32,000 bases of DNA from an uncultured Methylococcaceae bacterium (GTDB lineage: Bacteria; Pseudomonadota; Gammaproteobacteria; Methylococcales; Methylomonadaceae). The DNA lies in assembly GCA_903917345.1 (NCBI GenBank), contig CAIXAE010000036.1, forward strand, positions 43,604-75,603, read 5' to 3'. Of this stretch, positions 2,815-24,295 are shown in pieces. The position numbers and the translations under genes were made by a program. The notes beneath the pieces were generated by a model. It was not told the DNA's origin and did no database searches. It saw nothing but the letters and a program-made list of their open reading frames with translations. Numbering within the stretch: position 1 is the first letter of the stretch; each line of letters opens with the position of its first letter.

Positions 2815-2840
2815 CTTGATTACAACGAATAGGCTGTATC

Positions 2841-5758: not shown

Positions 5759-6298
5759 TCAAACTCGCTTAATCAAGATATGCTCAAAAACATCAGTATC
5801 ATTTGATTTAGCTTCTTTAAAATACCGAACCACTTGAGAGGTACCACCTGGTTTTTCGGCAGTATCACCGTCCCATAAAGCCATTAAAACATTGGCGTTA
5901 TTTGCCAAATAAATTGCTAGTTGTTGATAACATAAATCCCTATTCTCATCAGTCATTGGGGACAAACTAGGTAATGCTTCAACACTAACGGCATGCTTTA
6001 ATAAATTATAGAACTCATCTAGTGAGCTTTGTGTTTTAAAATCAGCAATATAATCAGACAATGCCATAGGCAATATCGCTTTAAATGGCACACCTAACTC
6101 AAGCGCAATCGCTACAGCTAAGCGATCAGCACCATCAGCAAGACCAGAAAGTAGGCATATTGACTTATCTTTGTATTGGTTTTGTATTTTTAATAATCGA
6201 TTGTTAATGTCGGCTTTTATTACCGGCAAATCATGAATACAAATAGCTCGATGACCTGTAATACCTATTTGTAGATCAAAATCAAATTTTGACTTCAT
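5759..6298 (-). CDS. SLOG-superfamily (LOG/DprA/YpsA-like Rossmannoid) protein
   Basis: Motifs IGITGHR, LSGLADGADRLAVAIA and a LOG-like KPGGTSQVV are present in the order expected for SLOG/LOG-fold proteins. ATGA overlap (6295-6298) with the upstream STAND gene. Confidence 0.6.
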   Translation of the reverse strand: MKSKFDFDLQIGITGHRAICIHDLPVIKADINNRLLKIQNQYKDKSICLLSGLADGADRLAVAIALELGVPFKAILPMALSDYIADFKTQSSLDEFYNLLKHAVSVEALPSLSPMTDENRDLCYQQLAIYLANNANVLMALWDGDTAEKPGGTSQVVRYFKEAKSNDTDVFEHILIKRV

Positions 6299-9200
6299 GT
6301 TAACTGCCTCTTTATCAGATCTTCTAACTTATCAAAGCAATCTATAGTATCCGGATGGACAGCACCCAAAACCTTTTCATGAATTGCTATGGCACGTCGA
6401 TATAGCATTTCCGCCTCAACATAATTCCCTTGATCAGATAACAATAATGCTAAATTTTCGACACTAATAACAGTATCAGGATGTTCATTTCCCAAAACTT
6501 GTTCACGTATTGAAAGCACAATACGACTTAAAGTTAGAGCTTCAGTGTAACTACCTTGTTCATAAAACAAACTAGCTAAATTGTTATAACTGGTTGCTAT
6601 ATCTGGATGACTTGTACCTAAAGAACTTTCATTGATTGCTAATACACGTCGATAAAATGATTCTGCAAGATCATAAGCACCCTGCGCCCATGATATAACC
6701 GCTAATGCATTAAGGCTTTGAACTAAATCTGGGTGATCTATACCAAATACATTTTCATGCATTCCTAACACACGGTTATAGTACATCTCTGCTTTTGCAT
6801 AGTCTTGCAAATAATATGATGCTTCAGCTAATAAATTAAGAGTTGGTGCTATGTGTAAATGATCACTACCTAAAACTCTTTCGTGTATTACCAATATTCG
6901 CTTAAAAAAACTTATTGCACTTTCAAAATCACCTTGATCATAAAATAACCCACCCAAATTATTAAGACTCATAATCGTATCGGGGTGCTCATAACCCAAA
7001 ACTTTTTCCCGTATCGCTAAAGTTTTACGATGCAACTCTTCTGAATCCGAATACATACCCTTATCAAATAACAAACTAGCTAAGTTGTTTAAACTCATAG
7101 CTGTGTGTGGATGCTCAGAACCGAGTACTTTTTCACTTATCAATAATGAACGATGATAAAGATCTTCTGCTTCTAAAAAATTTCCTTTATGGTGCAATAA
7201 AAGACCTAAGTTATTAAGGCTTGTTGAAATTTCAATGTGATCTCTACCCAATACCTTTTCATAAACTGAAATTGCTAGACGATAAAAAGCTTCTGACTCA
7301 TCGTAATTTCCTTGATTAAACATTACTAAAGCTAAGTTATTAAGACTAATAGCAGTCATGGGATCTTCTGGCCCCAATACATCTTGACGTATTTTCAACA
7401 CCTGACGATGAAGTACCTCTGCGTTATCGTAGTTACCTTGATCACGTAGAGTTTCAGCCAGATTATGAAGGCTAATAACCATATCAGGGTTATTAGCCCC
7501 TAATAATTTTTCACGTATATTTAGTGACTGACGATGTATTGACTCAGCATCCCCATAGTTGCCTTGTTTGCGTAACATCTCACCTAAACTGTTAAGACAA
7601 GTAGCAATATCAGCATGATCACCACCTAATATCTCTTCAGTAATTGCCAGCGAACGTCGATAAAGTGTTTCTGCCACTTTTAACCTAACAAATCTATTTG
7701 TAAAAAAATAGCCTAAATTAAAAAGTGTAAATGCTAACAACCCAGTATCTACAATATTTTCTGCCTCCCACTTTTCTAACGCCTCTAGGTAACACTGGCC
7801 TGGATCGTATTGATCACCCATTACCAACCAATAACCCAATAACGCCAAATCATCTTTTTCATATAGAATTGAAAACAGGGGTATAGCACTAATACAATCC
7901 TTTAAGGACTCCCATTGCTCGGCTTGTTGCCATTGCCACGGCAACTCTTCTGCTACACGACTACTTAATTCTTGATTATTAAAGTAGTGAGCTAATTTGA
8001 TATGTGCATTAGATTCCGCCTCTTTATTATTAAAACAATAGTGCTTAACTGCTAGCCTTAAGTATTCATGAAAAAAGTTTAATAAGCTCCCTCGTTTTGC
8101 TAGATGCGTATCAATCGCCATTAAAAATGTAGAAATACTCAATCGACTTAAACCAGTAATGCCGGCTATTTCTGTTTCAGATAGCCCGCGCCTAGCTGCC
8201 CACAGGGCTTGCATAATTTGGATAACGATAGCTTTACCAAAATCTTTCTCTAAGCGCTCTAGCACTAAGACGAATAATTCTTGGGGATTGTTGGCCGTTA
8301 ATAAGGCATCAATGCGCTGATCTAAGTGTTCAAAGTATCCAAAGATACGCAACTCTTCTAATACTGTTTTTAAAAACAGAGGGCTCCCTGTTTGAGGCGC
8401 TTGTGCAATGCATCGTGTTTGTTGAATCGATAAAGCTTTGCGATAAGTCGCCAACCAATCACGGATTAATTGCTCTTTACGTTTTACATCCAGCGCTTCT
8501 AAAGTATGAATAGGCCAGTTTCGTTGACTTAATAACTCTAATTGATCGCCAGGAATAACACTAAAAATAGCCGTTACATTTTCCTGCCAAAAAGTAGGTA
8601 GCCATAGGCACTCTTTGCTTTCTAATTGATTAATGCCATCAATAATCAACAACAAAGGATCTTGCTCACTTACTTTTGCCAACCATAAGGGAAAATCTCT
8701 AATCACATCTTCAGGAGTACTGGGTAAATCTTGCCCATCATTTAAACGATGTTTTATTTCAGACATTATCCGGTACACAATAGCCACTGGATCAACATCA
8801 CCCGATATACCGATATAATGTTCAATGATAAATTGCTTAGGATTTGCAAGGCGTTGTTGACTGACCCAGTAAGCCAGCAAAGCCGACTTACCTGATCCAG
8901 ACTCACCTGTCACTAATAAAGCATGATTTGTTTTAGCCTGTAAAAAAGTATCTAACGCTTCAATATCTCTAGGATTCGCACTATAAGCATGGCAACGCTC
9001 AATTGCATAGCTACGATGAGCATCTTGTGCGGCCTTAAACGGTGTAGGTGTTTGGTCTAGTGGAAACTGCTTATCTAAAACGGCTAATAAATCAACTTTA
9101 ATTAACTCACCTAGTGCTTCTATACTGATGTAATTATCTCTAACAGGTAAACCACTACTGCGTAGCCTTGTTTTAAGCGTTGCTAATTTAGCTTTTAGTG

Positions 9201-9714
9201 GAGACTCTGTTTCAAAGTAATCATTAGACGCATTAAACTGGTCAGCTAATGATTGACTGAGTGCGGCGTCTCTTAAATAAAAGAAGCAGTGTTCAGCCAT
9301 ATCAGGGTTATCTAATACCCCATGTAAGATTTCCATCTCTGTGACACTTAAGCCGGCTTTTAAACTGTCTTCTAAGAAAGGAAATAAGCTGAGTAATTCT
9401 GCTTTATGATCTAAATCGGTATCTAAGGGTGCCCAACCATAGCGATCGCCTAATAAACTAACAAAGTAAGGTCGGCAGCGATTAATCTCTTCAAGACAAA
9501 TCCGAAGCACTTTGCCTTGTTCAGCTTCTTCTTGTGTGACACCCCAGCGCAAATCAATTTCTGTAAACTCTACCTGCCTATCACGACAAGCACGACGAAC
9601 AACAGGAAACACGTGACTCATTAAATAATGCCGCTCCTCTTGCATATCCCGAAAAGTTGAGGAGATAAAGACGCGTATTTCGCGATTAGTGTTGGTTTGA
9701 TGTGTATCTGTCAT
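6295..9714 (-). CDS. DUF4062 (TIR-like)-NACHT/STAND NTPase-TPR protein
   Basis: N-terminus IRVFISSTFRDMQEERHYL...FVSLLGDRYGW is DUF4062-type. Walker A is LLVTGESGSGKSALLAYW. The C-terminus has 11 diverged 42-aa kinesin-light-chain-type TPR units (..LG.xHPDT..SLNNLA..). Confidence 0.85.
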   Translation of the reverse strand: MTDTHQTNTNREIRVFISSTFRDMQEERHYLMSHVFPVVRRACRDRQVEFTEIDLRWGVTQEEAEQGKVLRICLEEINRCRPYFVSLLGDRYGWAPLDTDLDHKAELLSLFPFLEDSLKAGLSVTEMEILHGVLDNPDMAEHCFFYLRDAALSQSLADQFNASNDYFETESPLKAKLATLKTRLRSSGLPVRDNYISIEALGELIKVDLLAVLDKQFPLDQTPTPFKAAQDAHRSYAIERCHAYSANPRDIEALDTFLQAKTNHALLVTGESGSGKSALLAYWVSQQRLANPKQFIIEHYIGISGDVDPVAIVYRIMSEIKHRLNDGQDLPSTPEDVIRDFPLWLAKVSEQDPLLLIIDGINQLESKECLWLPTFWQENVTAIFSVIPGDQLELLSQRNWPIHTLEALDVKRKEQLIRDWLATYRKALSIQQTRCIAQAPQTGSPLFLKTVLEELRIFGYFEHLDQRIDALLTANNPQELFVLVLERLEKDFGKAIVIQIMQALWAARRGLSETEIAGITGLSRLSISTFLMAIDTHLAKRGSLLNFFHEYLRLAVKHYCFNNKEAESNAHIKLAHYFNNQELSSRVAEELPWQWQQAEQWESLKDCISAIPLFSILYEKDDLALLGYWLVMGDQYDPGQCYLEALEKWEAENIVDTGLLAFTLFNLGYFFTNRFVRLKVAETLYRRSLAITEEILGGDHADIATCLNSLGEMLRKQGNYGDAESIHRQSLNIREKLLGANNPDMVISLHNLAETLRDQGNYDNAEVLHRQVLKIRQDVLGPEDPMTAISLNNLALVMFNQGNYDESEAFYRLAISVYEKVLGRDHIEISTSLNNLGLLLHHKGNFLEAEDLYHRSLLISEKVLGSEHPHTAMSLNNLASLLFDKGMYSDSEELHRKTLAIREKVLGYEHPDTIMSLNNLGGLFYDQGDFESAISFFKRILVIHERVLGSDHLHIAPTLNLLAEASYYLQDYAKAEMYYNRVLGMHENVFGIDHPDLVQSLNALAVISWAQGAYDLAESFYRRVLAINESSLGTSHPDIATSYNNLASLFYEQGSYTEALTLSRIVLSIREQVLGNEHPDTVISVENLALLLSDQGNYVEAEMLYRRAIAIHEKVLGAVHPDTIDCFDKLEDLIKRQLT

Positions 9715-9761: not shown

Positions 9762-10013
9762 GTGGCGTTAAAATTTTCTAATAAAGCTTATGACCGAGGC
9801 AGTGAGTACGCCCATTTTCGTAAAATTGCTTCATTACGAGAATATCTATTGGTCGCACAAGACCAGCCTAACATCGAACGCTATGTGCGACAAGGCTACG
9901 TTTGGATATTATCAGAAGTAACGGGAATTGAGGCCACCATGTCATTAGATAGCATCGACTGCATGCTTAGTTTACGTGAGGTTTATGACAAGGTTATGGA
10001 TGATTTTGATTAA
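9762..10013 (+). pseudogene. C-terminal fragment of a Uma2-family (DUF820) endonuclease
   Basis: 83 codons starting at GTG. DRGSEYAHFRKIASLREYLLVAQDQPNIERYVRQ matches the C-terminal half of Uma2 proteins (D..K..Y...EY.LV.Q....E.Y). The N-terminal half is absent. Confidence 0.5.
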
Positions 10014-12046: not shown

Positions 12047-12222
12047 CTATATAACCCGTACCTAATAAATTAGGACAGAGGGGCGAAATGGTGTTTGGGG
12101 CCTTGGTGTCTCCCGGTTATTCTTAGCCAGAATAGTTCAAATAATACATTGATGTCAAATTCTAACCGTGAGTTGAATAAACGGTATCGCTTTAACTGCA
12201 CGCGATAATAAAATTAATATCG

Positions 12223-14910
12223 TCAAACGACTCGCATATCTTTTTGAAGATCTCTTAAATTCTCCAAGCAAAGCTTAGTATCAGGATGATCAGGCCCCAA
12301 CCCATGTTCAACAATGGCCAAAGCTCGAAGATAAAGCGGCTCCGCAGCATCATAATCACCTTTATTGTTAAGCAATACTGCGAGATTGTTTAAATAAGTA
12401 CCCGTTTTAGGATGATCAGGCCCCAACGCATTTTCAGTAATCATCAAGGCTCGACGACAGAGGTTTTCTGCTGCAGCATAATCACCTTTATCTTTAAAAA
12501 ATGTTGCGAGATTATTTAAATAAGTACCCGTTTTTGGATGATCGAGCCCTAATGCCTGTTCTGCAATCGCCAAGGCTCTACGAAATAGCGGCTCTGCGAC
12601 ATCATAATCACCTTTTTCATGAAGCAATAATGCGAGATTGTTTAAAGAAGTACCTGTTTCAGGATGATCAGGGCCCAGCGCTTGTTCTGCAATCGCCAAT
12701 GCTCGACGACAGAGGTTTTCTGCTGCAGCATAATCACCTTTTTCATGAAGCAATACTGCGAGATTGCTTAAAGAAGTGCCCGTATCAGGATGATCAGGAC
12801 CCAACGCTTGTTCTGCAATCGCCAAGGCTCGACGATAAAGTGGTTCTGCGACATCATAATCCCCTTGATCTTGAAGCAATGATGCGAGATTGTTTAAACG
12901 AGTACTCATATCAGGATGATCAGTTCCCAAGGCCTGTTCTGTAATCACCAAGGCTCTGCGAAAAAGAGGCTCTGCATTATCATAATCACCTTTTTTAGCA
13001 AAATACTGTAAATATTGCGCTAAGTTACTTAAAGTCACAGCCGTATATTCATGCTCTACCCCATAACATAACTCACTTAACCTGACGCCAAACCATCCCC
13101 AAGACTCTTGTTGCTCATGCTTAAGATAAGGTAATGTTCTTAGGTCTACTAGTTTTTCGATATTCTCACTGTATTTATCAACCGCCTCTTGATCAATGAT
13201 TTTTAAAAGCGCTTCATCCGACCACTGCTTTAATTGCTCTGGCAATTCCAACGCCATAAAGCTATCTAGGCAACTGACTAAATCCTCTGTCTGGGTAAAC
13301 TGCTCCCACAACACTTTACCTAACACCTCATGACCCTTTTCAACTTCTACAAAGTAATCAGCCCCGGCACTCTTCTCATCCAACAACCAATCTTGCAAGC
13401 TCTTATGAAACAGTGCAACGCCTTGCTCAGTAACGGTCAGGTAACTACCCAAGCGCTCAAGCACTTTAGAGCGTTGGCGTTTACTGTAATTTAATAAGGT
13501 TTCTATATCGCTGGTGGGAATAGGACGTGAAGATGCAACTAATATTTCCAATACCGGTAATAACTCTTGCTCATAATTATGGGTATCAGGGTATCGGTAT
13601 TTAAATTCACTTAAATACAAAGCACTCAAGCCTTTGGGCAGATCATTCAACTGTGTTATGTCGATTATATTTTGTTGAATGGCGGCTTGTAATTGCCTTA
13701 CATATAAAAAGTTACCTTGTGCGGCTGTTAATATCTGCTGTTGTGCATGGATTAAATCAGTTTGTTCTAAGCCTAAAGTGGGCAACCAATGTTGGATATA
13801 CGTTTTAACATCTTCTTGATTCCGCGGATCATCCGCGTTAATGTCATGCAGTCCAAATTGTTCTAATTGCCCACGAATTCCGGATTCTGGCCGACTAGTG
13901 ACCACCCACCCTAACCAATCGGGTAACTTGCTTAGCTGTGAGGCTATTAATTCCGTCAGTTCACTTTGACCGTTTTGTAAGGTTTCATCGAGCGCATCAA
14001 TAACAATCAATTGTCTGGGGCGATTGCCATTAATGGCATAGCGTAAAGGATTGGCTAATAAATAATCAAACAGATCCACTGGGTTCTTGCGGTCTAGGTC
14101 TTTTATTTCTGGTTGATTGAGCAGATGCCGACGATAGTCAGGTAAACGAGTCGCTAATTGAAAAGCAATCGAACGAATCACCCGTGTGGGGTCTCTGCGC
14201 TCAGGACTGTTATAACGACAAAATTGTGCCGCGATCACTTGGGCTTTATTGATGTGTGCCAGCCATGCTACCACCGCACTTTTGCCCATGCCTGGGCCAC
14301 CACTTAAACAAAAAATACGTGAACTTCTGTCACCTTCTCGCCAGATATTAATTTCATCCAGTAACCATTGCCGTCCGGTAAAGCCTGGCAAACGACTATT
14401 AATATCAGGGGTACAATCTAAGGGTAACAAGTACTCTTCAAGTTGACTAATCTCTCCAGCAAAACGTTGGTTATCAGGATGATCAATCACCGCACAGATT
14501 TGTGTAAAGCGCTCGGCGTACCAGACTTCAAAAGCATCTGGATCGCTTTGTTGACGCGCTTGCCAGTCGTGCATATCTAACCATTGCAAATGGCTCACCG
14601 ATATCGGCAGACTGACATCGACTTCGGGTTGAACCAGAATCGTAAAGACATAAGCTTTGCCGGCACCTAAGGCGATAGCGATTTCATCCCTACATACACC
14701 AGGATCACGGGTGGAATGCTCTGATAAAAAAGCCAGCACTTGATCACTCTCAATAATTCCTTCGGTGACTTCGCGTCGCCAATCGTCACCAAATTCAATA
14801 CGCTCACGATCTAACCAGACCTCATGACCTAAGTGGGCAAGATCGGTTTTAATCCGTAAGACTAAAGCTTCTGCGGCATTATCATGGCCGTAACTGAGGA
14901 AGATTTTCAT
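12223..14910 (-). CDS. TIR-STAND (NACHT/NB-ARC-like) NTPase-TPR protein
   Basis: The N-terminal TIR reads MKIFLSYGHDN..VWLDRERIEFGDDW..VLAFLS..CRDEIAIAL, with a candidate catalytic Glu. Walker A is FCLSGGPGMGKSAVVAWL and Walker B-like is LIVIDALDE. There are six near-identical 42-aa TPR units at the C-terminus. Confidence 0.9.
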   Translation of the reverse strand: MKIFLSYGHDNAAEALVLRIKTDLAHLGHEVWLDRERIEFGDDWRREVTEGIIESDQVLAFLSEHSTRDPGVCRDEIAIALGAGKAYVFTILVQPEVDVSLPISVSHLQWLDMHDWQARQQSDPDAFEVWYAERFTQICAVIDHPDNQRFAGEISQLEEYLLPLDCTPDINSRLPGFTGRQWLLDEINIWREGDRSSRIFCLSGGPGMGKSAVVAWLAHINKAQVIAAQFCRYNSPERRDPTRVIRSIAFQLATRLPDYRRHLLNQPEIKDLDRKNPVDLFDYLLANPLRYAINGNRPRQLIVIDALDETLQNGQSELTELIASQLSKLPDWLGWVVTSRPESGIRGQLEQFGLHDINADDPRNQEDVKTYIQHWLPTLGLEQTDLIHAQQQILTAAQGNFLYVRQLQAAIQQNIIDITQLNDLPKGLSALYLSEFKYRYPDTHNYEQELLPVLEILVASSRPIPTSDIETLLNYSKRQRSKVLERLGSYLTVTEQGVALFHKSLQDWLLDEKSAGADYFVEVEKGHEVLGKVLWEQFTQTEDLVSCLDSFMALELPEQLKQWSDEALLKIIDQEAVDKYSENIEKLVDLRTLPYLKHEQQESWGWFGVRLSELCYGVEHEYTAVTLSNLAQYLQYFAKKGDYDNAEPLFRRALVITEQALGTDHPDMSTRLNNLASLLQDQGDYDVAEPLYRRALAIAEQALGPDHPDTGTSLSNLAVLLHEKGDYAAAENLCRRALAIAEQALGPDHPETGTSLNNLALLLHEKGDYDVAEPLFRRALAIAEQALGLDHPKTGTYLNNLATFFKDKGDYAAAENLCRRALMITENALGPDHPKTGTYLNNLAVLLNNKGDYDAAEPLYLRALAIVEHGLGPDHPDTKLCLENLRDLQKDMRVV
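12240..13010 (-). repeat. tandem 126-bp (42-codon) TPR-coding repeats with a 252-bp higher-order unit
   Basis: The anchor aggatgatcagg (with variants) recurs at 12283, 12409, 12535, 12661, 12787 and 12913, exactly 126 bp apart. A 41-nt identical block sits at 12449-12489 and 12701-12741. Confidence 0.85.
14506..14910 (-). other. TIR domain of CDS 12223-14910
   Basis: The FLSYGH start strand, the W..E motifs and the conserved Glu in CRDEIAIA fall within the first ~135 residues. Confidence 0.75.
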
Positions 14911-16655
14911 GTGTTTGTGTCGGTTGCTATCATTAAATTAATGGCTTTTAACAAATGCGGAATATTTTGAATACTTTGCCTATCTTTTAGCTTTTCATCA
15001 GCGGGTAAGTCATCAAAATCCACTAAGCACGGATGAAATAACATTTTATTGTTTCTGATGGGAGCATATTTCCACCCAGCCAATCGTTTTTGGGCACACC
15101 ATCGCGCATGTTCTAAACGTTGTAAAATATTTAACTCTAATTCGGAAAAAACAAATGTCGGTGCATCTGGGTTGAGAGGCACTAATTTTCGACCAATCGC
15201 TCTTAATTTAATATCAATATGCGCGGCGGCATAACGATTGGAATCGCGTATAGACTCATCTAAATATGGCCAGGCTTCATTGATAGACGCAGCTGGATTT
15301 TTGTCTAAATAATCTTGATGAATAACTTGCGCCATCTGGTCTTTAGCATATTCAATTAAGCGTAAGACATCTCTATCTTGATCATCACCAACGTTATTCG
15401 CCTTATTTGAAAAGAGTGGGACAACCTGAATTTTCTTGTTATGTTGATTAAATTCTTGAAGTAAACTGCCGCCCGGTGGATCAACGACAACAATATTGTA
15501 AGACAAGCCGGCTTTTGAGCGTGCGATATCAATTTTCTTAGCAGAAATCACGTTACTGATTTCATTTTTAGTACAGATATAAACACAGCTAGGTTGATTA
15601 CTATCCCCAAATAACCTATCAATTTCAGGTTCTGGTAATTGATCAATACTGTTTTCTATTAATTTTATGTCTAACAACTCCAAGAATGCAGGATGGCGTT
15701 TAATTAACTGTTGATATTGCTGTTCAGCGTTAGCGTCAATAACCGTAATTTTTGGTTTATGGCCTCCACGATAATGGCCTAGTTGGGCCAAGTAAAATAA
15801 TACACTTTGGCCAATACTACCTAAGCCGATTAAAACCAAACGTATTTGCACATCATCTTGAGTCGCTATGCCACTATCAGGTGGATAATCATCTAGCATT
15901 TTTCTAGCGGTCAGCTCTATCTGATTAACAAAGCTGACTTTAACGACATCTTCAGGACTAAAGAAATCGACTGTCGATAAATTATGTTTAAGGTTGATAT
16001 CAGGCACATTGCATAAACATCTTAAAGTACTATCTTGCCCAGTGATTTTTAACGCTAACTTACACAGCGAAATATTATGTGCATAATCATCATTAAACGC
16101 TAATAAGCTGTGAGCTTTATTAATATGAGAGACTTCTAGGTTATGACTGTCATCACCCTTAGACAGAATAATAATGACACCATTTTTTCTAAGTAAAGAA
16201 ACATTGGCATCATCTAAAGAACTATCCGCTATTAGCACTACTTTTGTAGTCGACGCTAACACCACAGATGCCGCTACGGCGATATCATTTGAGCCATACA
16301 CAATAATGTGATTATTCAAAAACATTGACATGAAGCGATCTACGGTAAACCCCATTTGTCTTAAATAAACATGAATAATACTGGCCGCGATTGTTATCTG
16401 AATCAGCGCCGCCGACAAATTAACCAGAAAGGGGTCATCGCCATCCAAACTGAGTGTTGTACAAATGATGGTATAGATACTTTTACCTATACTAAAAAAA
16501 ATCGATTCATTTTCTACAGCATCTAGGTTTTTCCAAACAGCCAGAACAAAAACAATACCGGTTAATTTCCATAATCGAGTTACAAAGTTAGAGGCTAACC
16601 ATTCCAAAAGGTTATGTAAAATTGAGGACTTCTTGTTATCTGATACGGTGTGCAT
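14907..16655 (-). CDS. membrane protein: 2-TM channel-like N-terminus, two Rossmann (KTN/RCK-like) domains, C-terminal RyR domain
   Basis: The N-terminus has TM1 (LTGIVFVLAVW), a pore-loop-like SIYTIICTTLSLDGDDPF and TM2 (LSAALIQITIAASIIHVYL). The two Rossmann segments are IIVYGSNDIAVAAS and LVLIGLGSIGQSV. The RyR-domain signature is LEHARWCAQKRLAGWKYAP..FHPCLVDFDDLPADEKLKDRQSIQNIP. ATGA overlap with the TIR-STAND gene. Confidence 0.7.
   Translation of the reverse strand: MHTVSDNKKSSILHNLLEWLASNFVTRLWKLTGIVFVLAVWKNLDAVENESIFFSIGKSIYTIICTTLSLDGDDPFLVNLSAALIQITIAASIIHVYLRQMGFTVDRFMSMFLNNHIIVYGSNDIAVAASVVLASTTKVVLIADSSLDDANVSLLRKNGVIIILSKGDDSHNLEVSHINKAHSLLAFNDDYAHNISLCKLALKITGQDSTLRCLCNVPDINLKHNLSTVDFFSPEDVVKVSFVNQIELTARKMLDDYPPDSGIATQDDVQIRLVLIGLGSIGQSVLFYLAQLGHYRGGHKPKITVIDANAEQQYQQLIKRHPAFLELLDIKLIENSIDQLPEPEIDRLFGDSNQPSCVYICTKNEISNVISAKKIDIARSKAGLSYNIVVVDPPGGSLLQEFNQHNKKIQVVPLFSNKANNVGDDQDRDVLRLIEYAKDQMAQVIHQDYLDKNPAASINEAWPYLDESIRDSNRYAAAHIDIKLRAIGRKLVPLNPDAPTFVFSELELNILQRLEHARWCAQKRLAGWKYAPIRNNKMLFHPCLVDFDDLPADEKLKDRQSIQNIPHLLKAINLMIATDTNT
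14937..15143 (-). other. RyR (ryanodine-receptor repeat, PF02026-like) domain
   Basis: The pattern E-H-x-R-W...GW-x-Y...hP-x-LV-x-[FY]-x-x-LP-x-x-EK-x-x-DR is typical of bacterial RyR domains. Confidence 0.65.
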
Positions 16656-16664
16656 TTATTAATC

Positions 16665-17564
16665 TCAAAGTTTTAGTTCGTTCTGACAAATTAGGACGTC
16701 ACAAACCTGTTTCGCTGTAGGTCGTTGCGCAGGATTGGGGTTTAAACAAGCATTTAATGTATTTTCTAATACCTGAGGTGATTCTATTTCATTGACAGAT
16801 TGTTTGATTTTTATGGGTGAAAAATGCCCCATAAATGCAGCATGTTCATAGCTATCATCTAGATTTTTATGGAATGGATGCTCACCTGCTAACAATTGCC
16901 CTAAGACAATGCCGCAACTAAAAATATCTGATGCATGGGACGGCGTTTTATCATCAATATGCTCTGGAGACATATAGAAACTGGTACCTACATACCCCTG
17001 TAAACCATGCCAAGGCGCTTGCTTATCTGAAAAGAAAGACCAGTCTAAATCAATAATTCTTAATATATAACCACTGTCTACAGTAGTGTCAGGCATCAGT
17101 ATCAAATTATCTGGCTTTATATCGCAATGCACAATTTTATGGTCATGCAGGGCTTTAACTCCTAACATTAAGTCATTAGCAAACGTGAGTCTATCTGACC
17201 AAGTAAACTCATAATAATGCTCAAAACAATAGGCTAACGTTTTACTCCCATTGATAAACTCAAAGACTTGATAGAAATAATTATCTTCAAAGAACTCAAC
17301 AATTTTGTAACAGTGACTCCGTGTTTCACTATTATCTTGTATACATTTTTTTATTTTCTGCTGATGAGTAACATATTCGCCAAACCAGTCAATGATAGGC
17401 GTAGGAAATTTATACTGTTTAAAAAAGACGCGCTCACCTGTTAAGGATTTAGCTTTGTAAGCGATGGCAAAAGCACCACGACTCAGCTCTTCGATAATTT
17501 GATAACCGTTTTTAATAATCCCTTTAGGAAATAGTTCTGGCATAAATATAATTGAATAAGACAA
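16665..17564 (-). CDS. Hanks-type Ser/Thr protein kinase (kinase domain only)
   Basis: Gly-loop-like LSRGAFAIAY, Lys in VFFKQY, catalytic loop HCDIKPDNL, a DLD triplet in place of DFG, and GTSFYMSPE. There are 9 nt between its stop and the next start. Confidence 0.85.
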   Translation of the reverse strand: MSYSIIFMPELFPKGIIKNGYQIIEELSRGAFAIAYKAKSLTGERVFFKQYKFPTPIIDWFGEYVTHQQKIKKCIQDNSETRSHCYKIVEFFEDNYFYQVFEFINGSKTLAYCFEHYYEFTWSDRLTFANDLMLGVKALHDHKIVHCDIKPDNLILMPDTTVDSGYILRIIDLDWSFFSDKQAPWHGLQGYVGTSFYMSPEHIDDKTPSHASDIFSCGIVLGQLLAGEHPFHKNLDDSYEHAAFMGHFSPIKIKQSVNEIESPQVLENTLNACLNPNPAQRPTAKQVCDVLICQNELKL

Positions 17565-17780
17565 ATATAATCAGTGAATACTAATATATAAATCAGTAAC
17601 AATGAAATCTTTCTTCTCTAACCTGCTTTAAGATTTTGCGCTAGTTAGAAAAAACAGTATATATCCTGAAAACGACAACTTATGTCCGTTACAATAAAAA
17701 AAACATGCTTTTCTTTTGATGTGTCTAACTAGACAGGTTAGATCACTAGATTTTGTGGGCATTTCTAGGATTTTGGGTAT

Positions 17781-18360
17781 CTTGCTGAAACTTAGGGTGG
17801 CGTGCTGAAACCTGAGGTTGGGCATTAAAACTTCAGCTTTTGAAATGCGGTACTGGTTTTAATGTTAGAACTTTTAGTGCTGGTTTGGCACTTAGGTTTG
17901 CGTTATTAAACCTAAATTTACTGGCTGGCACATGAGTTTTAATATTAGGCCGCAAGTTTAAACACTGACACAATAACTTGATTGTTAAACCTTAGGTTTA
18001 AGTCCGGGGCTTTTTGCTCGAGTATTGGAACTTACATTTGAATACGGGTACACAAGTTTGGCTACTGGAGCAAAGGGTTGAGTCTTGGTACAAAAGTTTT
18101 AGTGTGGGCATTCAAGTTTTATTCCTACCAAATAGAATTGGAGTTTGGCCCCAAGATTTTAAGAGTGGCACCCTAGTTTAATTGTTGATATTTAGGTTTA
18201 AGCGCCCAACCCTAGAATAAAGGCTTGGACCTCAAGTTTGAATGCTACCCCTCAAGTTTACATACTGGGACAGATAATTGAATGTTAGATCGTGTGTTTA
18301 ACTTTTAGGGCTGTTTTGAATCACGCACTAAAAAAGCTTTAAGTGTTGCACCTAAAGCTT
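17781..18360. repeat. array of 29 degenerate 20-bp tandem units in perfect register (non-coding)
   Basis: Written as 20-mers from 17781, the columns align with no indel. By hand count, col 18 is T in 27/29 units, col 6 is T in 24/29, col 19 is T in 24/29, col 11 is C in 23/29, and cols 7 and 8 are each G in 17/29. The approximate consensus is ArTnyTGGnACytAaGTTTr. Two related but out-of-phase copies may lie at 17741-17780. Confidence 0.85.
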
Positions 18361-18361
18361 T
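18329..18361 (-). terminator. weak candidate intrinsic terminator after the FN3-like gene
   Basis: The minus-strand transcript reads aaagcttta-(11 nt)-taaagcttt-tttt. The 9-bp stem is AT-rich with only 2 GC pairs. It overlaps the last units of the 20-bp array. Confidence 0.3.
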
Positions 18362-18371
18362 AATGCGCTTT

Positions 18372-18986
18372 TTAGTTGACGATTTTTAAAACGGGGACAC
18401 AAAATTCGGTAGTACCTGACGGAGTCACGGCAGCCACTCTGACGGCTATAATGCTACCGGGGTCTAAGCCTTTCATTACATAAGAAGCAGACGTTGTCAT
18501 CTCAACTGTTTTCCAATCTGTCTCTAATGTAGGAATACCTCCATTACCTATCTGCCAAATGTAAACACCAGCTGCGTATATGGCTTTGGTGATAAATTTA
18601 ACCTCACCTGGATGAACTCCATCAACCACAGATAATATTTGCTTGGTTACGGGAGGTAACTCTCTACTAATATTAAAACCACTACTTAAAAGCTTAGTTT
18701 CATCGCCATTTGCCACTTGATTAACATATTGCGCATACACTCTAATTATATTATCTAGCGCCGTTTCTTTATCATGCATTATTGATTTGGCCGTTTGGCT
18801 GCCATCGTCAGCGGCTATAACGGCTGCTTCTAACGCATCAATGGCTAAAGTAAACTCAGCCAAAGGAATATAAGGTTGTGTGTAAAAAGTATTAGCCGTC
18901 ATTTTGACAACAATATTGCGGCTAGCAATGATTTTTTCGCGGATAGGAAACTTAACAATATCGATTAGTGCTCTTAGAATCTTCAT
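18372..18986 (-). CDS. hypothetical protein with a C-terminal fibronectin-type-III-like beta domain
   Basis: 204-aa ORF. The C-terminal ~90 aa (VHPGEVKF..YIWQIG..DWKTV..YVMKGLDPGSIIAVRVAAVTPSG) has the FN3 strand pattern. The N-terminal half is helical and unassigned. Confidence 0.5.
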   Translation of the reverse strand: MKILRALIDIVKFPIREKIIASRNIVVKMTANTFYTQPYIPLAEFTLAIDALEAAVIAADDGSQTAKSIMHDKETALDNIIRVYAQYVNQVANGDETKLLSSGFNISRELPPVTKQILSVVDGVHPGEVKFITKAIYAAGVYIWQIGNGGIPTLETDWKTVEMTTSASYVMKGLDPGSIIAVRVAAVTPSGTTEFCVPVLKIVN

Positions 18987-19140
18987 GATCTTTTCCTGTA
19001 GTTAAATGTTTAAAGTGGTTTGTCACGACACTCACTATAGGCTACTTCCTGAAATATAAACTTTTATTTTCAATAATTTACAAAAAACATCAATGATTAT
19101 GCTGTTATTTTCGGCTATCTTGCTGATAAGTTACAGTTAT

Positions 19141-20277
19141 TTAAATTTCTTCCAAGGAATACCTTTTTTGATTAAGGGAGTATTTGGCGGCTTTAATAGC
19201 CGATAAAGGCACACGCAAAACCGTTTTATCTTCTACTTTTGGATTTAAAGCCGCGTTGGCAATGTTAACCATGTCATCCGCGCTCAGCGTTAAGGCTGTC
19301 GCATCTATAAAACTGACAAACCCTTTATGTACCAGATCTTTATTTTTATTTAACGTAATAATCACACTAGACACATTGCGTCTCCAACTAAACAGATCTG
19401 TTGGCAGTTTAATGACAGATTCAATCCAGTCTTCATCAACGATCATTTTTTTGATTTTTGCATCATAAGACCCTTTATCTAAGAATCTTGTGGGTAATGC
19501 CAATAACACTTTTCCCTGTGCATGCGTATGAAATAAGCCAAACTGTAGCCATAATGATTCCATCGTATATTTAGCATTTTCAACATTCAGCAACTTATAA
19601 TTAACCTGCTCAAGCTTTACTAATTCTTTCGCTGTAAATTTTGGATGATACTCTGGGGTAATCAGCACAAGATCGGCATTTTTGGGTATTTGATCAGGAT
19701 CTAAGAGATCATTCATATAAGAATAGGTTCCTGTTACCCCTTTTATAGCCATTAACTTTTTGCCGATGTCTGCCAGGCTGCGGTAATATTCAGTTAACTC
19801 AAGCTTTTCGGCATTCAACCCCCAACCCAACTGACCCAGACTCGCACAGGGGATAAACACCTGTTTTTTAGTATCGTGTTTAGTTAAGGCAAGCATCAAC
19901 GCCGAGATACGTTGGCCGTCATAAGCAGGGCGAAACAGAGCGCCAAACTGCTCATAATAATCAACCACCTCATCAGCAAATAATGAGAAATCATCAATAT
20001 TAGCCACTTCTTTAAGCAACTTAGCTAAGCCACTTTGAGAGGGTAATCGACTACTATGTTCTGTTCTTAGCACATGATTTTCTTGTTGTTTAAGCACGGC
20101 CAATAATCTAGGCGCCTGCTCTTCAAGTGGTAAATCAACAAGCGCCATAAACGTTTTAGGATCTGCTTTATAAGAACGCACCATGGATAAAAAAGTATTC
20201 ATAGTGCCAGAATGCCACCACCCTCCCGTAAATATAATGGACGGTGAAAAATGCTCTAATGCAGATAATATATTCAT
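19141..20277 (-). CDS. HsdM/N6-adenine-methyltransferase-like protein with degenerate motifs I and IV
   Basis: The C-terminal half matches the N6_Mtase pattern (LLALPTRFLDKGSYDAKIKKMIVDEDWIESVIKLPTDLFSWRRNVSSVIITLNKNK..FIDAT..YSLNQKRY). Motif IV reads DLVLITPEY instead of NPPF/Y (19648-19659). Motif I reads FIPCASLGQLG instead of DP.cGsG. Confidence 0.65.
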   Translation of the reverse strand: MNILSALEHFSPSIIFTGGWWHSGTMNTFLSMVRSYKADPKTFMALVDLPLEEQAPRLLAVLKQQENHVLRTEHSSRLPSQSGLAKLLKEVANIDDFSLFADEVVDYYEQFGALFRPAYDGQRISALMLALTKHDTKKQVFIPCASLGQLGWGLNAEKLELTEYYRSLADIGKKLMAIKGVTGTYSYMNDLLDPDQIPKNADLVLITPEYHPKFTAKELVKLEQVNYKLLNVENAKYTMESLWLQFGLFHTHAQGKVLLALPTRFLDKGSYDAKIKKMIVDEDWIESVIKLPTDLFSWRRNVSSVIITLNKNKDLVHKGFVSFIDATALTLSADDMVNIANAALNPKVEDKTVLRVPLSAIKAAKYSLNQKRYSLEEI

Positions 20278-20291
20278 TAATACTTCCCCTC

Positions 20292-20519
20292 TTAATCGTC
20301 AAACAAAGGAGGAGTCAATACACAACGAGTTCCATTATTTGCCAAGGGCGTCACAATGCCCCGCGCCTCCATCTCCTCCACAATGAGTGCCGCGCGGTTG
20401 TAACCTATTTTAAATTCACGCTGTACCGCAGATATTGAAGCTCTACGTGATCGGGTAACAAATAATACTGCGGCTTCGTATAAAGGATCGTTTTCGGAGT
20501 GAGTTTCAGTTGTTGTCAT
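20292..20519 (-). CDS. stand-alone FtsK-gamma-domain winged-helix protein
   Basis: [48 protein letters not shown] closely parallels the FtsK/SpoIIIE gamma domain (DpLy.eAv.fV......S.S.lQR...IGYNRAAr....mE..GiV.p). It lies 14 nt upstream of the MTase-like gene. Confidence 0.75.
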
Positions 20520-20656: not shown

Positions 20657-20697
20657 CTGGATAATAGGCACTTCTACTTTCATGCGTGAGAATTGAA

Positions 20698-21555
20698 ATG
20701 CCGTCAATAATTAAAAAACTCCCTGCCAATATCCACGGTAAAGATTATGTAATCGGTGATTTGCATGGTTGCCTTGATTTACTTGAACGCCTCTTACAAA
20801 AGGTAAACTTTAATGCTCAGCATGATCGTTTATTTTCTGTTGGAGATTTAATTGATCGCGGCCCCTACCCTTTAAGTTGCTTACAACTTTTGCATAAACC
20901 CTGGTTCTTCGCTGTTAAAGGTAATCATGAAGCCATGTTATTAGATTGCATTACGGAATATCTTCCGACAAACACTCTACCCAATACCACAGATTTTGAA
21001 GACAGCGACTTTATTTACAATGGTGGGGAGTGGATTTATAAATGGATAAATATAGAGAATCAATTCATAGCCACTGAATTGAAAGATGCCTTGAGTGCCG
21101 TATTTAAATTACCCTTAATATATATCGTAGGCACGGGGGAATCGCGATTTCATGTGATTCATGCTGAATTAACTAAACCTAACCCGTTTAATCATGATGA
21201 GATGGTTTGGCTAGATAGTGATATTGACCAATGGTATGCGGAAAACAGCATAACAACCGAAGTTGAACAACGCTTATTGTGGAGTCGTTCACTGATGCGC
21301 TTTGATGCTGCTGGCGATTATCCTGCTAAAGTACAAAAGGGCCTTTCGACAACTTTTTGCGGACACTCCATAACAAAAACACCCAAGCAGTTTTTATCCC
21401 ATGTGTGTCTCGATACTGGGGCATTTATGTCTATGAATGGCAACACTGACTTCGGTCTTTCTCTTTATGATGTCAAAGAATCACAGTGTTTATCGACGGC
21501 TTATCATCAAGAGGAAATATCTGTTACAAATCTTTTCATAGAAAAAATAAATTGA
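20698..21555 (+). CDS. PPP-family metallophosphoesterase (PrpA/PrpB or lambda-phosphatase-like Ser/Thr phosphatase)
   Basis: Motifs GDLHGC, GDLIDRGP and GNHE are present in the canonical order. The ORF track starts at GTG 20686, but ATG 20698 (MPSIIKKL) is equally plausible. Confidence 0.85.
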   Translation: MPSIIKKLPANIHGKDYVIGDLHGCLDLLERLLQKVNFNAQHDRLFSVGDLIDRGPYPLSCLQLLHKPWFFAVKGNHEAMLLDCITEYLPTNTLPNTTDFEDSDFIYNGGEWIYKWINIENQFIATELKDALSAVFKLPLIYIVGTGESRFHVIHAELTKPNPFNHDEMVWLDSDIDQWYAENSITTEVEQRLLWSRSLMRFDAAGDYPAKVQKGLSTTFCGHSITKTPKQFLSHVCLDTGAFMSMNGNTDFGLSLYDVKESQCLSTAYHQEEISVTNLFIEKIN

Positions 21556-21633
21556 TTACTTTTTATTAAACGACACCTACTGTCGTAATGCATAGCTACA
21601 CTACCTATTCAATTTACTAACCCAAAGGTCATT

Positions 21634-23898
21634 ATGTCTACTGCCATTCGTTTAGTGTCACAAAACAACCCAAAGAACTTTCCTCGCGATCCGACTAAAA
21701 CACTCGCTGCGTTAATGAGTTTACGTTTTGCTATGAATTATGATTCAGAGGGTGACTATCAAGAAGATATAAGAACAGCTAATAGCAATTGGTTAAGCGT
21801 GGTCGGCGATTTTATAAACTGGCCTGCTGATTTACTTCAAGGTTTTGAAGCGGCCTCTAATCTCGAACAGTCTATTGAAGAAGAACCTTTAAAATATAGA
21901 TCACGCTCGAAATTAAGAGGGATAAAACATGAAACCACTTATTGGGATAATGTCTTTAATCATTTTACTGACACTTACTTTAAGCAAAAATCCAGACTGG
22001 ATCATTTGTTTTTTGAATCAATCTCCGAATTAGAAAAACATTGGGCCGATGTATGTGCAAATGACACTGCCTCACAAAATATTAGCTTACTGGCTAACAT
22101 GTTGGCGCTGAGTGATGCGGAGCGTGCACTCCTTTGTTATTTAGCGCATCGTCAATCTAAAAACTTTAAAACGTTTAACGCTATCGAGTTTATTTCATAC
22201 CCTGTTGCTACTAAAGTATTGAGCTGCATGTTAGCTATTGAGTTTTCTGACATAACAATGGCTCTACACCCCAAAAGTATCTTAGTTAAAAACAATATCA
22301 TTAATAAAGATTATGTTTATCCCGAATGGCATGATTTTATTAGTCTTTGGGAGCATTTTAGAAACATTATCAATATCCCTAATAATTCGCTAGAAGAATT
22401 AATGGGGCAATTTGTGGCACAAACAACGACGGGGCATTTGACAGTTGCAGACATGCCTCATTTAGAAGATACCATTAAGATACTAATACCTACTTTACAG
22501 AATGCACTTAAAGCAAAAGCGACCGGCGTTAATATTTTACTTTATGGCCCTCCAGGCACGGGTAAAACACAACTAGCTAAACTATTGGCAGAATCTATTA
22601 ATGCCAATCTTTACGAGGTCAGTTCTTCTGATGAGTCTGGCACGCCTATTAACGATAGAGAGCGTTTTATTGCCCATAATATGGCGCAAAGTTTTCTAGG
22701 GAGTAGCGAAGACACGTTGATTTTATTTGACGAGGTCGAAGACGTGCTAAGTCTGTATGACGATCATTCATTTTCTAGAGCGTCTGATAAGAGAAACTCA
22801 AGAGGTTGTTTTAATAAAGCCTGGATCAATGAGCAATTGGAATCAAATATTATTCCTACTATTTGGATTTGCAACAATCATGAGGATATTGATCATGCTT
22901 TTTTAAGACGCTTTATTTATACCCTTGAGATCACCACCCCTCCCCGCTCTATTCGTGAAAATATTGCACGAAACTATTTAAATGAATTTAACTTAGGCGA
23001 CAGCGTATTTAAAAAGATCAGCCAACATGAGTATCTAAGCCCAGCGCAATTAGAGTCTGCTGCTCGTTTAGTTAAATTAAACGGCAGCACTGATCGTGCC
23101 GATATTGAGAAGATTTTAGATAAATCGCTAATCAATAGCATGAATTTAATGGGGCAAAAGCATAATCTCGTGATGCAATCAAGCATTACACCTTACAGTC
23201 TTGATTATTTAAATGTGGATACGTCTGTTCCTTTAGAGCGTTTAATTCGTTCTTTAAAAAAGACCCCTAAAGTTAATCTTTGTTTTTATGGACATCCCGG
23301 TACTGGCAAAACACAATTAGCCGAATATCTAGCGGAGGCGCTTGATAAACCCTTATTAATTAAACGCGCTTCTGATTTGTTAGCGGCTTATGTCGGTGAG
23401 AATGAGAAGAATATTGCTTCTATTTTTGCTGAAGCCACTAAAGAAAATGCGATTTTATTTCTTGATGAGGCGGATTCTTTTTTAAGAAAACGTGAAAACA
23501 TGACTAAAAACTGGGAAGTCAGTCAGGTTAACGAGTTGTTACAACAAATGGAACGTTTTAACGGTATTTTTATCTGTGCGACTAATTTGTTTAATCATCT
23601 TGATCAAGCCGCTTTAAGACGTTTTGTCTTTAAAATTCGTTTTGATTATTTAACCTTACCCCAAAGACAGTCTTTATTTGCCAACAGTTTAGCGATACCT
23701 GAAAGCGAAATACCCACTGCCCATCTTAAGCGTTTAGCCCTATTAACTACGCTTGCGCCAGGTGATTTTGCGACGGTATTAAAGCAAGCGACCCTTTTAG
23801 ATGAAGCGCTCTCTTCAGAGGAGTTGGTGTCTCAATTAGAGAAAGAATGCAGCATTAAACAAGGGAATAAAACCCAACACCCCATTGGTTTTATTTAG
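21634..23898 (+). CDS. tandem AAA+ ATPase with a ~290-aa unassigned N-terminal region
   Basis: There are two Walker A/B sets. The first is ILLYGPPGTGKTQLAKLL with LILFDEVED. The second is LCFYGHPGTGKTQLAEYL with ILFLDEADS. The second module is classical-clade-like (YVGENEKNIASIF). Confidence 0.85.
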   Translation: MSTAIRLVSQNNPKNFPRDPTKTLAALMSLRFAMNYDSEGDYQEDIRTANSNWLSVVGDFINWPADLLQGFEAASNLEQSIEEEPLKYRSRSKLRGIKHETTYWDNVFNHFTDTYFKQKSRLDHLFFESISELEKHWADVCANDTASQNISLLANMLALSDAERALLCYLAHRQSKNFKTFNAIEFISYPVATKVLSCMLAIEFSDITMALHPKSILVKNNIINKDYVYPEWHDFISLWEHFRNIINIPNNSLEELMGQFVAQTTTGHLTVADMPHLEDTIKILIPTLQNALKAKATGVNILLYGPPGTGKTQLAKLLAESINANLYEVSSSDESGTPINDRERFIAHNMAQSFLGSSEDTLILFDEVEDVLSLYDDHSFSRASDKRNSRGCFNKAWINEQLESNIIPTIWICNNHEDIDHAFLRRFIYTLEITTPPRSIRENIARNYLNEFNLGDSVFKKISQHEYLSPAQLESAARLVKLNGSTDRADIEKILDKSLINSMNLMGQKHNLVMQSSITPYSLDYLNVDTSVPLERLIRSLKKTPKVNLCFYGHPGTGKTQLAEYLAEALDKPLLIKRASDLLAAYVGENEKNIASIFAEATKENAILFLDEADSFLRKRENMTKNWEVSQVNELLQQMERFNGIFICATNLFNHLDQAALRRFVFKIRFDYLTLPQRQSLFANSLAIPESEIPTAHLKRLALLTTLAPGDFATVLKQATLLDEALSSEELVSQLEKECSIKQGNKTQHPIGFI

Positions 23899-23908
23899 GA
23901 GAAACAGA

Positions 23909-24295
23909 ATGCCTAACGATCAATATTATTTCCATGAAACACCTAACTTTATGGAATTAGAGGCTATTAAAAGAGGATGTATCAGTTATGCCACTTACAT
24001 GCACCCTAATCCTATATTTTATAAGTATTACTGGTGGATATTCTGGAGTGGAAGTGCTTGTGAAGGTCTTCAATTTAGAAGCAATGAACATCGTTTATCG
24101 ACAAAAGCCGCTTTCGATTTAATGGATTTATTATCTAAAAAAAAAGAACCCCACATAATATACAACATAAGACTCCCTCGCTTAGGCTCTGATTCCCCCT
24201 TTGATACCAACTCTAAAAGATGGGCTGCAGATACCGAATGGGCGCCCGCTTATGATGATGATACCGACCCGGTTTATAAAGTGGGTTATAAATAA
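23909..24295 (+). CDS. hypothetical small protein (W/Y-rich)
   Basis: AGGAGA at 23897-23902 lies 6 nt upstream of ATG 23909. The ORF track's start at 23885 would overlap the AAA+ stop. No domain recognised. Confidence 0.5.
   Translation: MPNDQYYFHETPNFMELEAIKRGCISYATYMHPNPIFYKYYWWIFWSGSACEGLQFRSNEHRLSTKAAFDLMDLLSKKKEPHIIYNIRLPRLGSDSPFDTNSKRWAADTEWAPAYDDDTDPVYKVGYK

Follow-up and report, generated by a model that had tools for sequence, protein, structure and literature searches.

Contiguous direct repeats with a period close to 20 bp are known from several bacterial systems. Iterons, such as the seven 22-bp repeats of the R6K gamma origin and those of P1 incA and F incC, are contiguous direct repeats of about 20 bp whose copies may be degenerate and which serve in cooperative binding or titration by an adjacently encoded protein. 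Partition centromeres, including parC of pSK41 and R1 (20-bp or 11-bp repeats bound by ParR) and sopC of F (12 repeats of 43 bp, each containing an inverted repeat), nucleate a superhelical nucleoprotein filament. In addition, regulators of the LytTR and OmpR types recognize direct repeats with a spacing of about 21 bp, the LytTR core being [AC][CA]GTTN[AG]. The array considered here lies in a 32,000-nucleotide stretch of an uncultured Methylococcaceae genome (contig CAIXAE010000036.1, positions 43,604 to 75,603; hereafter the window), where 26 degenerate 20-bp units follow a gene for a 204-aa protein with a fibronectin type III (FN3) domain. Genes of this family and arrays of this kind are very probably linked, and the array is tentatively interpreted as a cis-acting, phased, operator-like DNA platform of a self-contained cassette that is cooperatively bound by protein.

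The window array resembles iterons in its contiguous direct repeats of about 20 bp, near two helical turns, for which a binding role is here proposed. However, iterons comprise 3-9 units and accompany a Rep gene, whereas the window array has 26 units and an FN3-family partner, and arrays of this kind are found on either side of the gene. Iteron identity was rejected: although the 26 units at 20 bp agree with the 17-22-bp direct repeats of iterons and their spacing of about 20-22 bp, no Rep domain is present among the neighbors, the context is chromosomal, and tblastn of the partner protein against plasmid and phage collections gave no match. Partition centromeres likewise form tandem arrays of 4-12 or more units at 20 or about 43 bp, some of them palindromic, and the 40-42-bp units of relatives of the window locus resemble sopC; unlike them, the FN3 cassette is chromosomal and consists of a single gene. 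This candidate was also set aside, as ParA, ParM, ParB and ParR domains are absent from the window and from the relatives' loci, and the N-terminal domain of the partner protein has no ribbon-helix-helix or helix-turn-helix (HTH) match. The centromere- or iteron-like element proposed in an earlier reading of the sequence alone (the sequence-only reading) is thus not upheld, given a chromosomal locus with no rep or par genes nearby and no plasmid or phage match.

Operators of LytTR and OmpR-type regulators share with the window array direct repeats at 20-21 bp, and the window motif aAGTTTr fits the LytTR core. They differ in that two to three repeats are known, as against 26, in that the window holds no such regulator gene, and in that the array motif differs between sister lineages. 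Regulators of these types do lie near the cassette at four related loci. Genes of the OmpR type (Trans_reg_C) or LytTR type lie within a few kb of the cassette in L131 (1463-2140), L010 (474-1151, 2205-2933 and 5208-5939), L009 (6705-8833) and L154 (4670-5347). Repetitive extragenic palindromic (REP) sequences and bacterial interspersed mosaic elements (BIMEs) offer a further likeness, being intergenic, often 3' of genes, and partly palindromic in their units. The window array differs from them in its head-to-tail direct repeats, its strict phase and its constant position beside one gene family. REP elements are short imperfect palindromes scattered over many intergenic positions; in the 32-kb window, the array units occupy a single site. 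Some loci of the family do have REP-like elements and a Y1 transposase in their vicinity: GC-rich REP/BIME-like hairpins flank the arrays of L142 (600-900 and 1940-2600) and L059 (3710-3745 and 4320-4440), and the L154 family member, which has no array, is immediately preceded (479-1120) by a transposase gene of the Y1 (IS200/RAYT) type accompanied by 66-bp REP repeats.

The 20-bp array and its apparent constraint

The periodicity of the array is genuine and exceeds chance by a wide margin. At each multiple of 20 from 20 to 120, base autocorrelation reaches 0.43-0.45, as against about 0.25 elsewhere, its level between units being flat with distance, and among all periods from 5 to 44 only 20 and 40 stand out. 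For the 29 successive 20-mers of 17781-18360, the information content amounts to 10.48 bits, compared with 1.47±0.29 (maximum 3.1) in 2000 dinucleotide-preserving shuffles (z=30.8). The column conservation described in the sequence-only reading therefore stands against shuffled controls, and its hand counts are exact: column 18 is T in 27/29 units, columns 6 and 19 are T in 24/29, column 11 is C in 23/29, and columns 7 and 8 are each G in 17/29. With a leave-one-out position weight matrix (PWM), offset 0 is the best of 20 offsets in 22 of the 29 units; four units (17821, 17841, 18001 and 18201) barely match, and the register is picked up again after each. Of the repeat checks suggested in that reading, autocorrelation reveals the 20-bp period, but the array goes unreported by Tandem Repeats Finder, even at a score of 30. 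Since the array sequence is identical across three independent assemblies, it is not an assembly artefact.

The earlier description of 29 indel-free units holds for the phase, which runs without a register shift, but not for the count. Autocorrelation, information content and PWM scores delimit a core array of 26 in-phase, head-to-tail 20-bp units (17781..18300, minus strand), beginning 71 bp past the stop codon of the FN3-family gene, while 18301-18360 belongs to the terminator-like hairpin of that gene and lies one base out of register. This hairpin (18324..18366, minus strand; inverted repeat I9) has a 13-bp stem and a 3-nt loop followed by a T run, and it is kept in L131, L010, L007 and L009, where the changes in the uppermost part of the stem are compensatory. 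One of its arms resembles an array unit, scoring 15.3 bits on the unit PWM at +1, and the units of 18301-18360 score badly in register; the palindrome TTAAAGCTTTAA is common to the repeat of L142 and the window terminator. Within the array, a distal imperfect hairpin (17822..17849, no strand assigned) has a sequence complementary to each arm of the terminator hairpin (as inverted repeats I7 and I8), and the two units of 17781-17820 are palindrome-like and could also be read as inverted units. The unit consensus is yAAACyTArGTkCCArnAyT on the gene (minus) strand and A r T r y T G G m A C y t A r G T T T r on the plus strand, with two unit types, one palindromic (TTAAACCTTAGGTTTAA) and one of the form TGGCAC...AGTTT. 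Units are about 45% identical to one another (about 55% divergence), and the G+C content of the array is 39% by base frequencies.

The sequence-only reading also held that the region is neither coding nor a clustered regularly interspaced short palindromic repeats (CRISPR) array and belongs to no known repeat family, and each part of this view agrees with the present results. The 807-bp gap between the FN3-family gene and the kinase gene (17565-18371) contains no open reading frame (ORF) of at least 80 aa, the longest being 65 aa and not called in any assembly. A CRISPR identity was rejected, as CRISPR repeats measure 23-50 bp and alternate with unique spacers, whereas the units here are contiguous 20-mers without spacers and cas genes are absent. 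Searches of Rfam 15 returned best E values of 1.3-9.4, far below gathering scores. An array of sigma-54 promoters (TGGCAC-N5-TTGC, marked by GG-N10-GC with a conserved -12 GC) was considered and discarded as well: three units match, each with two mismatches that both fall in TTGC (-12), leaving no -12 GC, and sigma-54 matches in the window occur at the level of chance (27 observed, 26±5 expected).

Several observations suggest that the spacing of the units is constrained, as the sequence-only reading had supposed. The arrays of L131 and L010 cannot be aligned by BLAST with that of the window, yet they keep 20-bp phase, and the logos are nearly alike (aAAAC.tAagTttTAG in the relatives and.AAac.ta.Gt.ccA in the window). 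Conservation is column-specific rather than uniform, and the conserved columns include G and C positions. Differences in array length between strains are whole units, namely 40 bp in L004 (7724-7731, compared with about 18000-18040 in the window) and 20 bp between L010 (8601-8640) and L131 (3260-3300). None of 18 strain substitutions falls in the four most conserved columns (6, 11, 18 and 19; P≈0.02), and no indel of 1-3 bp is present over the 520 bp of the array, where neutral decay, judging from general indel-to-substitution ratios, would probably have left many. Several contigs of the window's species stop inside the array, which suggests strain heterogeneity there. The array of L010 is broken off after about 11 units by unrelated sequence at the contig end (8777-8826), possibly an insertion, while that of L131 runs for about 22 units.

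The FN3-family gene and its arrays across lineages

The partner gene (18372-18986, minus strand) has no Pfam match and encodes a protein of 204 aa, whose predicted structure has a three-helix bundle at the N terminus and an FN3 domain at the C terminus (predicted local distance difference test score 85; 91 for the N-terminal domain alone). Neither Pfam, NCBIfam nor PHROGs contains a family for this protein or, beyond a weak fn3 match, for its distant relatives. Fold searches of PDB and BFVD with the full protein returned FN3 domains only, as did PDB sequence profiles, and the N-terminal domain alone gave no significant PDB fold match (best E 1.1), with no ribbon-helix-helix or HTH fold among its matches. 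The overall charge is near-neutral, and the N-terminal 30 residues are basic. A hidden Markov model (HMM) of the family, run against 1.84 billion cluster representatives at 50% identity, produced 110 matches below 1e-30, nearly all of the listed ones being about 200 aa long; in the sources, family members are labeled only as "fibronectin type III domain-containing" or hypothetical. No relatives were detected when the family alignment was searched against viral contigs.

The association between this family and phased arrays was approached from both sides. In a protein-first set, assembled from a metagenome scan with the family alignment and from exact-sequence look-ups of near relatives and distant members, an array with a period of 20, 21, 40, 41 or 42 bp lies within 650 bp of the gene in 14 of the 17 lineages that have enough flanking DNA to be counted. 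These arrays have 4-29 units and lie on either side of the gene, mostly upstream. They include 12 units of 40 bp that are 92% identical (L136), 15 units of 41 bp that are 99% identical (L142), about 11 units of 42 bp (L009), about 26 degenerate units of roughly 21 bp (L149), and about 17 degenerate 21-bp units in a Bacteroidota metagenome-assembled genome (MAG; L146). The last of these, upstream of the family gene (2462-2881), has been called as a 139-aa protein; the ORF is probably spurious, 21 being 3 x 7. Across about 125 kb of DNA flanking family genes, no comparable array of these periods was found away from the gene.

The complementary array-first scan covered 185,579 species genomes for AAAC at offsets 0, 40, 60, 100 and 120 and, although not a census, recovered at least 119 loci; a family member recognized by the HMM lies within 250 bp of the array in six of the 119 loci listed. 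In two Methylococcales loci (L082 and L089), in Saprospiraceae (L075, 13 x CAAACCAATGGTTTCAAYTC) and in Geomonas (L080, about 18 x GGACGCCTGCGGTTTGTACG, GC-rich) the array stands upstream of the gene, and it stands downstream in Bacteroidetes (L051, 19 x GATCAGGAAACTTCTGTTCY) and in L111 (14 units). All-against-all BLAST of the ORFs beside the other approximately 110 pattern-derived 20-bp arrays revealed no second recurrent partner family among the matches listed. Most of the pattern matches listed are unrelated minisatellites. Dozens of these matches (within L012-L130) are near-perfect 20-bp or 10-bp repeats that have no common flanking gene family by BLAST; their hosts include Bacillaceae (Oceanobacillus, Fictibacillus, Sporosarcina and Virgibacillus), Nostoc, Lewinellaceae and Metamycoplasmataceae, among others. 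A Methylococcales MAG (L059, 3870-4320) carries 11 x 40-bp units in the same style (AAACACACGTTATCAAGTGA / AAACACAAGAAACCCAGTGG) on a 5.8-kb contig without a family gene; two 84-aa ORFs follow, which by eye only resemble a Phd/YefM-YoeB toxin-antitoxin pair. Overall, array sequences vary between lineages and the period does not. The window pair agrees with the class proposed here, in which a gene for a three-helix bundle plus FN3 protein of about 200 aa has, no more than about 650 bp away, a tandem array with a period of 20-21 (or 40-42) bp.

At the DNA level, homology between the window and L131, L010, L007 and L009 (60-72% protein identity; the MAGs with related loci are labeled Methylococcales) is limited to 19155-18329. 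This shared cassette of about 825 bp comprises a promoter-like region, the gene and the terminator. The conserved promoter-like 5' region (18987..19155, minus strand), in which the homology begins right after the methyltransferase stop codon, holds the palindrome TTATCAGCAAGATA at 19116-19129. The surroundings change from locus to locus. In L131, whose protein is 72% identical, an OmpR-type regulator lies upstream, and a convergent eutC comes after the gene, terminator and degenerate 20-bp array; in L010, a Wzy_C gene lies upstream of the cassette; and in other relatives the cassette adjoins nadB, BrxB, a tRNA or a type I restriction gene. L131 and L010 have a degenerate 20-bp array right after the terminator, as in the window, and both lack the FtsK-gamma and methyltransferase genes. 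Three loci (L143, L144 and L145) combine the same 204-aa gene and about 170-220 bp of conserved 5' region with three different kinds of upstream sequence, namely a degenerate array, a tRNA gene or a 624-aa ORF, and L133 and L134 diverge from each other on the downstream side of the family gene. The varying flanks within these two sets place the cassette at breakpoints of variable regions.

Explanations for the array

In the preferred reading, the array would be the cis partner of the cassette (promoter region, 204-aa gene and terminator) and not an element of the kinase/RyR/TIR operon. It would present short, partly palindromic operator-like sites, with a core AAAC-N4/5-GTTT in this lineage, recurring in steps of 20 bp (about two helical turns) and acting as double-stranded DNA. 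A sequence-specific and probably dimeric protein would load onto these sites and polymerize cooperatively into an extended nucleoprotein structure, which might control or exploit the cassette through silencing or activation of the cassette promoter from a distance, titration of the cassette's regulator, or use as a scaffold. The simplest candidate for the binder would be the FN3-family protein itself, acting through its basic N-terminal 30 residues and helical domain, because the motif varies between close lineages and only the FN3-family gene always accompanies the arrays; a motif that differs between sister lineages also makes a global host factor less likely as the binder. That the array works as DNA, that a protein binds it, which protein this is and what regulation results are all inferred, and the DNA-platform mechanism is accordingly proposed with reserve, as somewhat short of an even proposition.

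Four features hint at double-stranded DNA as the active form. The periods of 20, 21 and 40-42 bp, near two or four helical turns, are kept while the sequences change completely, and many units contain palindromes of 9-18 bp with a small or absent loop (ATTAAAGCTTTAAT in L142, AAACCAATGGTTT in L075, TGCGWCGCA in L146, and the palindromic unit type of the window). Furthermore, the arrays flank the promoter-terminator unit on one side or the other instead of lying within it, and they have neither an Rfam family nor a fold shared across arrays. Other observations weigh against the platform. Binding of a protein to the array is proposed from sequence features, and the partner protein has no DNA-binding fold recognizable in the fold searches. 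Periods span 20.0 to about 21.3 bp, so that the sites do not fall exactly on one helical face, and the spacing of the palindrome arms varies by lineage (0, 2, 5 and 14 bp), which misfits a single binding geometry. Some family members have no array (the distant L147, L152 and L154, and the alleles L144/L145, whereas the L143 allele has one), and the array is therefore dispensable for the gene. Many arrays of relatives are near-identical (92-99%), as young slippage products would be, RNA of the plus strand has a somewhat more stable predicted fold than shuffles (z=-3.6), and the AAAC core common to the six array-first loci follows in part from the pattern used in the search. The cooperative protein-binding platform, one of the roles listed in the sequence-only reading, remains the best reading, although unproven.

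Of the rivals, two are regarded as unlikely and to a similar extent. One is an RNA element, in which the array would be transcribed, by read-through or 3' extension of the FN3 gene or from a promoter of its own, into a modular RNA of about 26 motifs that serves as a CsrB-like protein sponge or as a ToxI-like processed repeat RNA. The strand reading AAAC is the gene strand in most lineages, although in L080 it is opposite to the gene. The near-identical 40-42-nt repeats upstream of a protein gene in relatives recall ToxI-toxN in size and layout, and in L111 the array starts about 25 nt past the stop codon with no hairpin between; in the window, however, a conserved terminator stands between gene and array, and where the array is upstream the two are kept apart by a conserved promoter-like region. 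The gene strand folds with a z-score of -2.1 and the plus strand with the value given above, but no Rfam family matches, and RNAalifold on the units of seven arrays gave no consistent hairpin and 0 kcal/mol for several of them, a weak test given that cutting at a fixed period drifts at indels. At about 45% identity, the window units appear too degenerate for a processed RNA, the partner protein is not ToxN/AbiQ-like, and an RNA element would leave the period near two or four helical turns without a reason. An antitoxin RNA array of a type III toxin-antitoxin system (ToxI, CptI or TenpI) in particular was rejected for the window, with its 20-nt units of about 45% identity downstream of the gene and a protein composed of FN3 and an unmatched helical bundle. 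Type III systems have near-identical repeats of 34-45 nt upstream of a toxin with a ToxN/AbiQ fold. They likewise place tandem repeats beside a gene of about 200 aa, sometimes with a terminator between, and the 40-42 nt of the relatives' units fall in the ToxI range; they contain far fewer copies than the arrays of the FN3 cassettes.

The other is a non-functional minisatellite, in which slippage or unequal recombination would seed arrays from the palindromic terminator or operator of the cassette, after which they would expand, homogenize and decay, the association reflecting a local mutation mechanism. This explanation gains from the terminator arm that scores as an array unit, from the TTAAAGCTTTAA palindrome that links the L142 repeat to the window terminator, and from the homogeneity of the relatives' arrays. 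Unit number is polymorphic between strains, contigs break within arrays, alleles with an array (L143) and without one (L144/L145) coexist, and strict phase is lost in the degenerate arrays of L149 and L143. Nevertheless, slippage has no preference for 20-21 bp, and yet this period is met again in three phyla among unrelated sequences; phase and column logo are kept by the arrays of the window and L131 although these have diverged past alignment, and conservation is concentrated in few columns, unlike a uniform decay. The complete lack of 1-3-bp indels over 520 bp at about 55% unit divergence, where many would be expected under neutrality, and the avoidance of the top conserved columns by strain substitutions likewise argue against it.

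Far less probable is the proposal, put forward in the sequence-only reading, of a platform that regulates, silences or insulates the kinase/RyR/TIR-NACHT (TIR-STAND) operon, possibly bound by the neighboring winged-HTH FtsK-gamma protein. The window array does lie about 240 bp upstream of the kinase start and in the same orientation, and arrays stand upstream of a gene in most relatives, so that they may act on whatever follows. However, the array of L131 precedes the convergent eutC and hence is not simply the upstream region of a kinase operon; most relatives' arrays stand upstream of the FN3-family gene in unrelated neighborhoods, none of the relatives pairs an array with a kinase/RyR/TIR operon, and in every lineage it is the FN3-family gene to which the array is linked. 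The FtsK-gamma protein is discounted as a binder, its gene being missing from L131 and L010, which keep the array. Comparison with relatives, as suggested in that reading, thus upholds the 20-bp phasing (L131) but not the adjacency to the operon, and it shows, at the level of sequence, that the array is independent of the kinase operon. Least credible of all is intrinsically curved or AT-tract DNA recruiting H-NS-like silencers without sequence-specific recognition, for although T/A tracts are phased at 20-21 bp in the arrays of L132, L135, L136 and L143 and the cassette occupies horizontally variable regions, a wedge-model path (a single model, implemented for this analysis) is no more bent than shuffles (end-to-end/contour ratio 0.80 compared with 0.80±0.11, with an unremarkable sliding profile), the G+C content of the window array is not low and the Geomonas array is GC-rich, and G and C are among the conserved columns.

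Genomic surroundings and significance

All local genes lie on the minus strand. In transcription order, a 75-aa FtsK-gamma protein (20292-20519) and an N6-methyltransferase (19141-20277) precede the FN3-family gene, and after the gap come a Ser/Thr kinase (start 17543/17564), a TrkA_N/RyR protein and a TIR-NACHT-TPR protein. Between the array and the kinase start, a non-periodic spacer (17544..17780, minus strand) has no similarity to the relatives' loci. The wider surroundings contain genes of the tetrahydromethanopterin (H4MPT) one-carbon (C1) pathway, a chromosomal context; given these genes and an origin in lake metagenomes, the host is probably methylotrophic. The regions 1492-9714 and 12223-17564 form a dense conflict-system island with three DUF4407 proteins, one of them with a fused caspase domain (2841-4667), a SLOG/YspA-like protein (5759-6298), a DUF4062-NACHT-TPR protein of 1139 aa (6295-9714) and, within 12223-17564, the kinase/TrkA_N-RyR/TIR-NACHT-TPR operon. 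A 126-bp tandem periodicity with 79-86% identity (6255-7623 and 12172-12995) is coding and corresponds to the TPR repeats of both NACHT-TPR proteins. An 83-aa ORF (9762-10013) weakly matches the C-terminal part of Uma2, a putative restriction endonuclease, and is probably a gene fragment. On the other side, adjoining the FtsK-gamma/methyltransferase pair, 20686-24295 holds a divergent Metallophos gene, a double-AAA ATPase (754 aa) and a 136-aa ORF; strain variants (L004, 3165-4184; L006, 937-1956) carry an additional WYL/WCX regulator gene between the ATPase and the phosphoesterase.

Neither the arrays, the gene-array pairing nor the partner protein is described in the literature searched. What appears to be new here, and is well supported by the genomes compared, is an unannotated protein family paired with phased 20-21-bp arrays across three phyla. 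A broader proposition, more doubtful than the platform itself, is that the three-helix bundle plus FN3 protein and its 20-21-bp array constitute a previously unrecognized two-component module distributed from Gammaproteobacteria to Desulfobacterota and Bacteroidota, often at breakpoints of variable regions or defense islands. The protein would then be a new nucleic-acid-binding protein that assembles on its own array, or generates or maintains it, and the pair would represent a chromosomal, non-replicative and non-partition counterpart of iteron and centromere systems. For the window, the array no longer enters into accounts of how the kinase/RyR/TIR-NACHT conflict operon is regulated. If functional, the pairing would define a new and widespread module of a cis-element and a protein and would add a new fold to the proteins that organize DNA or RNA on tandem arrays. 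It would also account for recurring intergenic repeats that are easily overlooked, such as the window array missed by Tandem Repeats Finder and the L146 array called as a 139-aa ORF.

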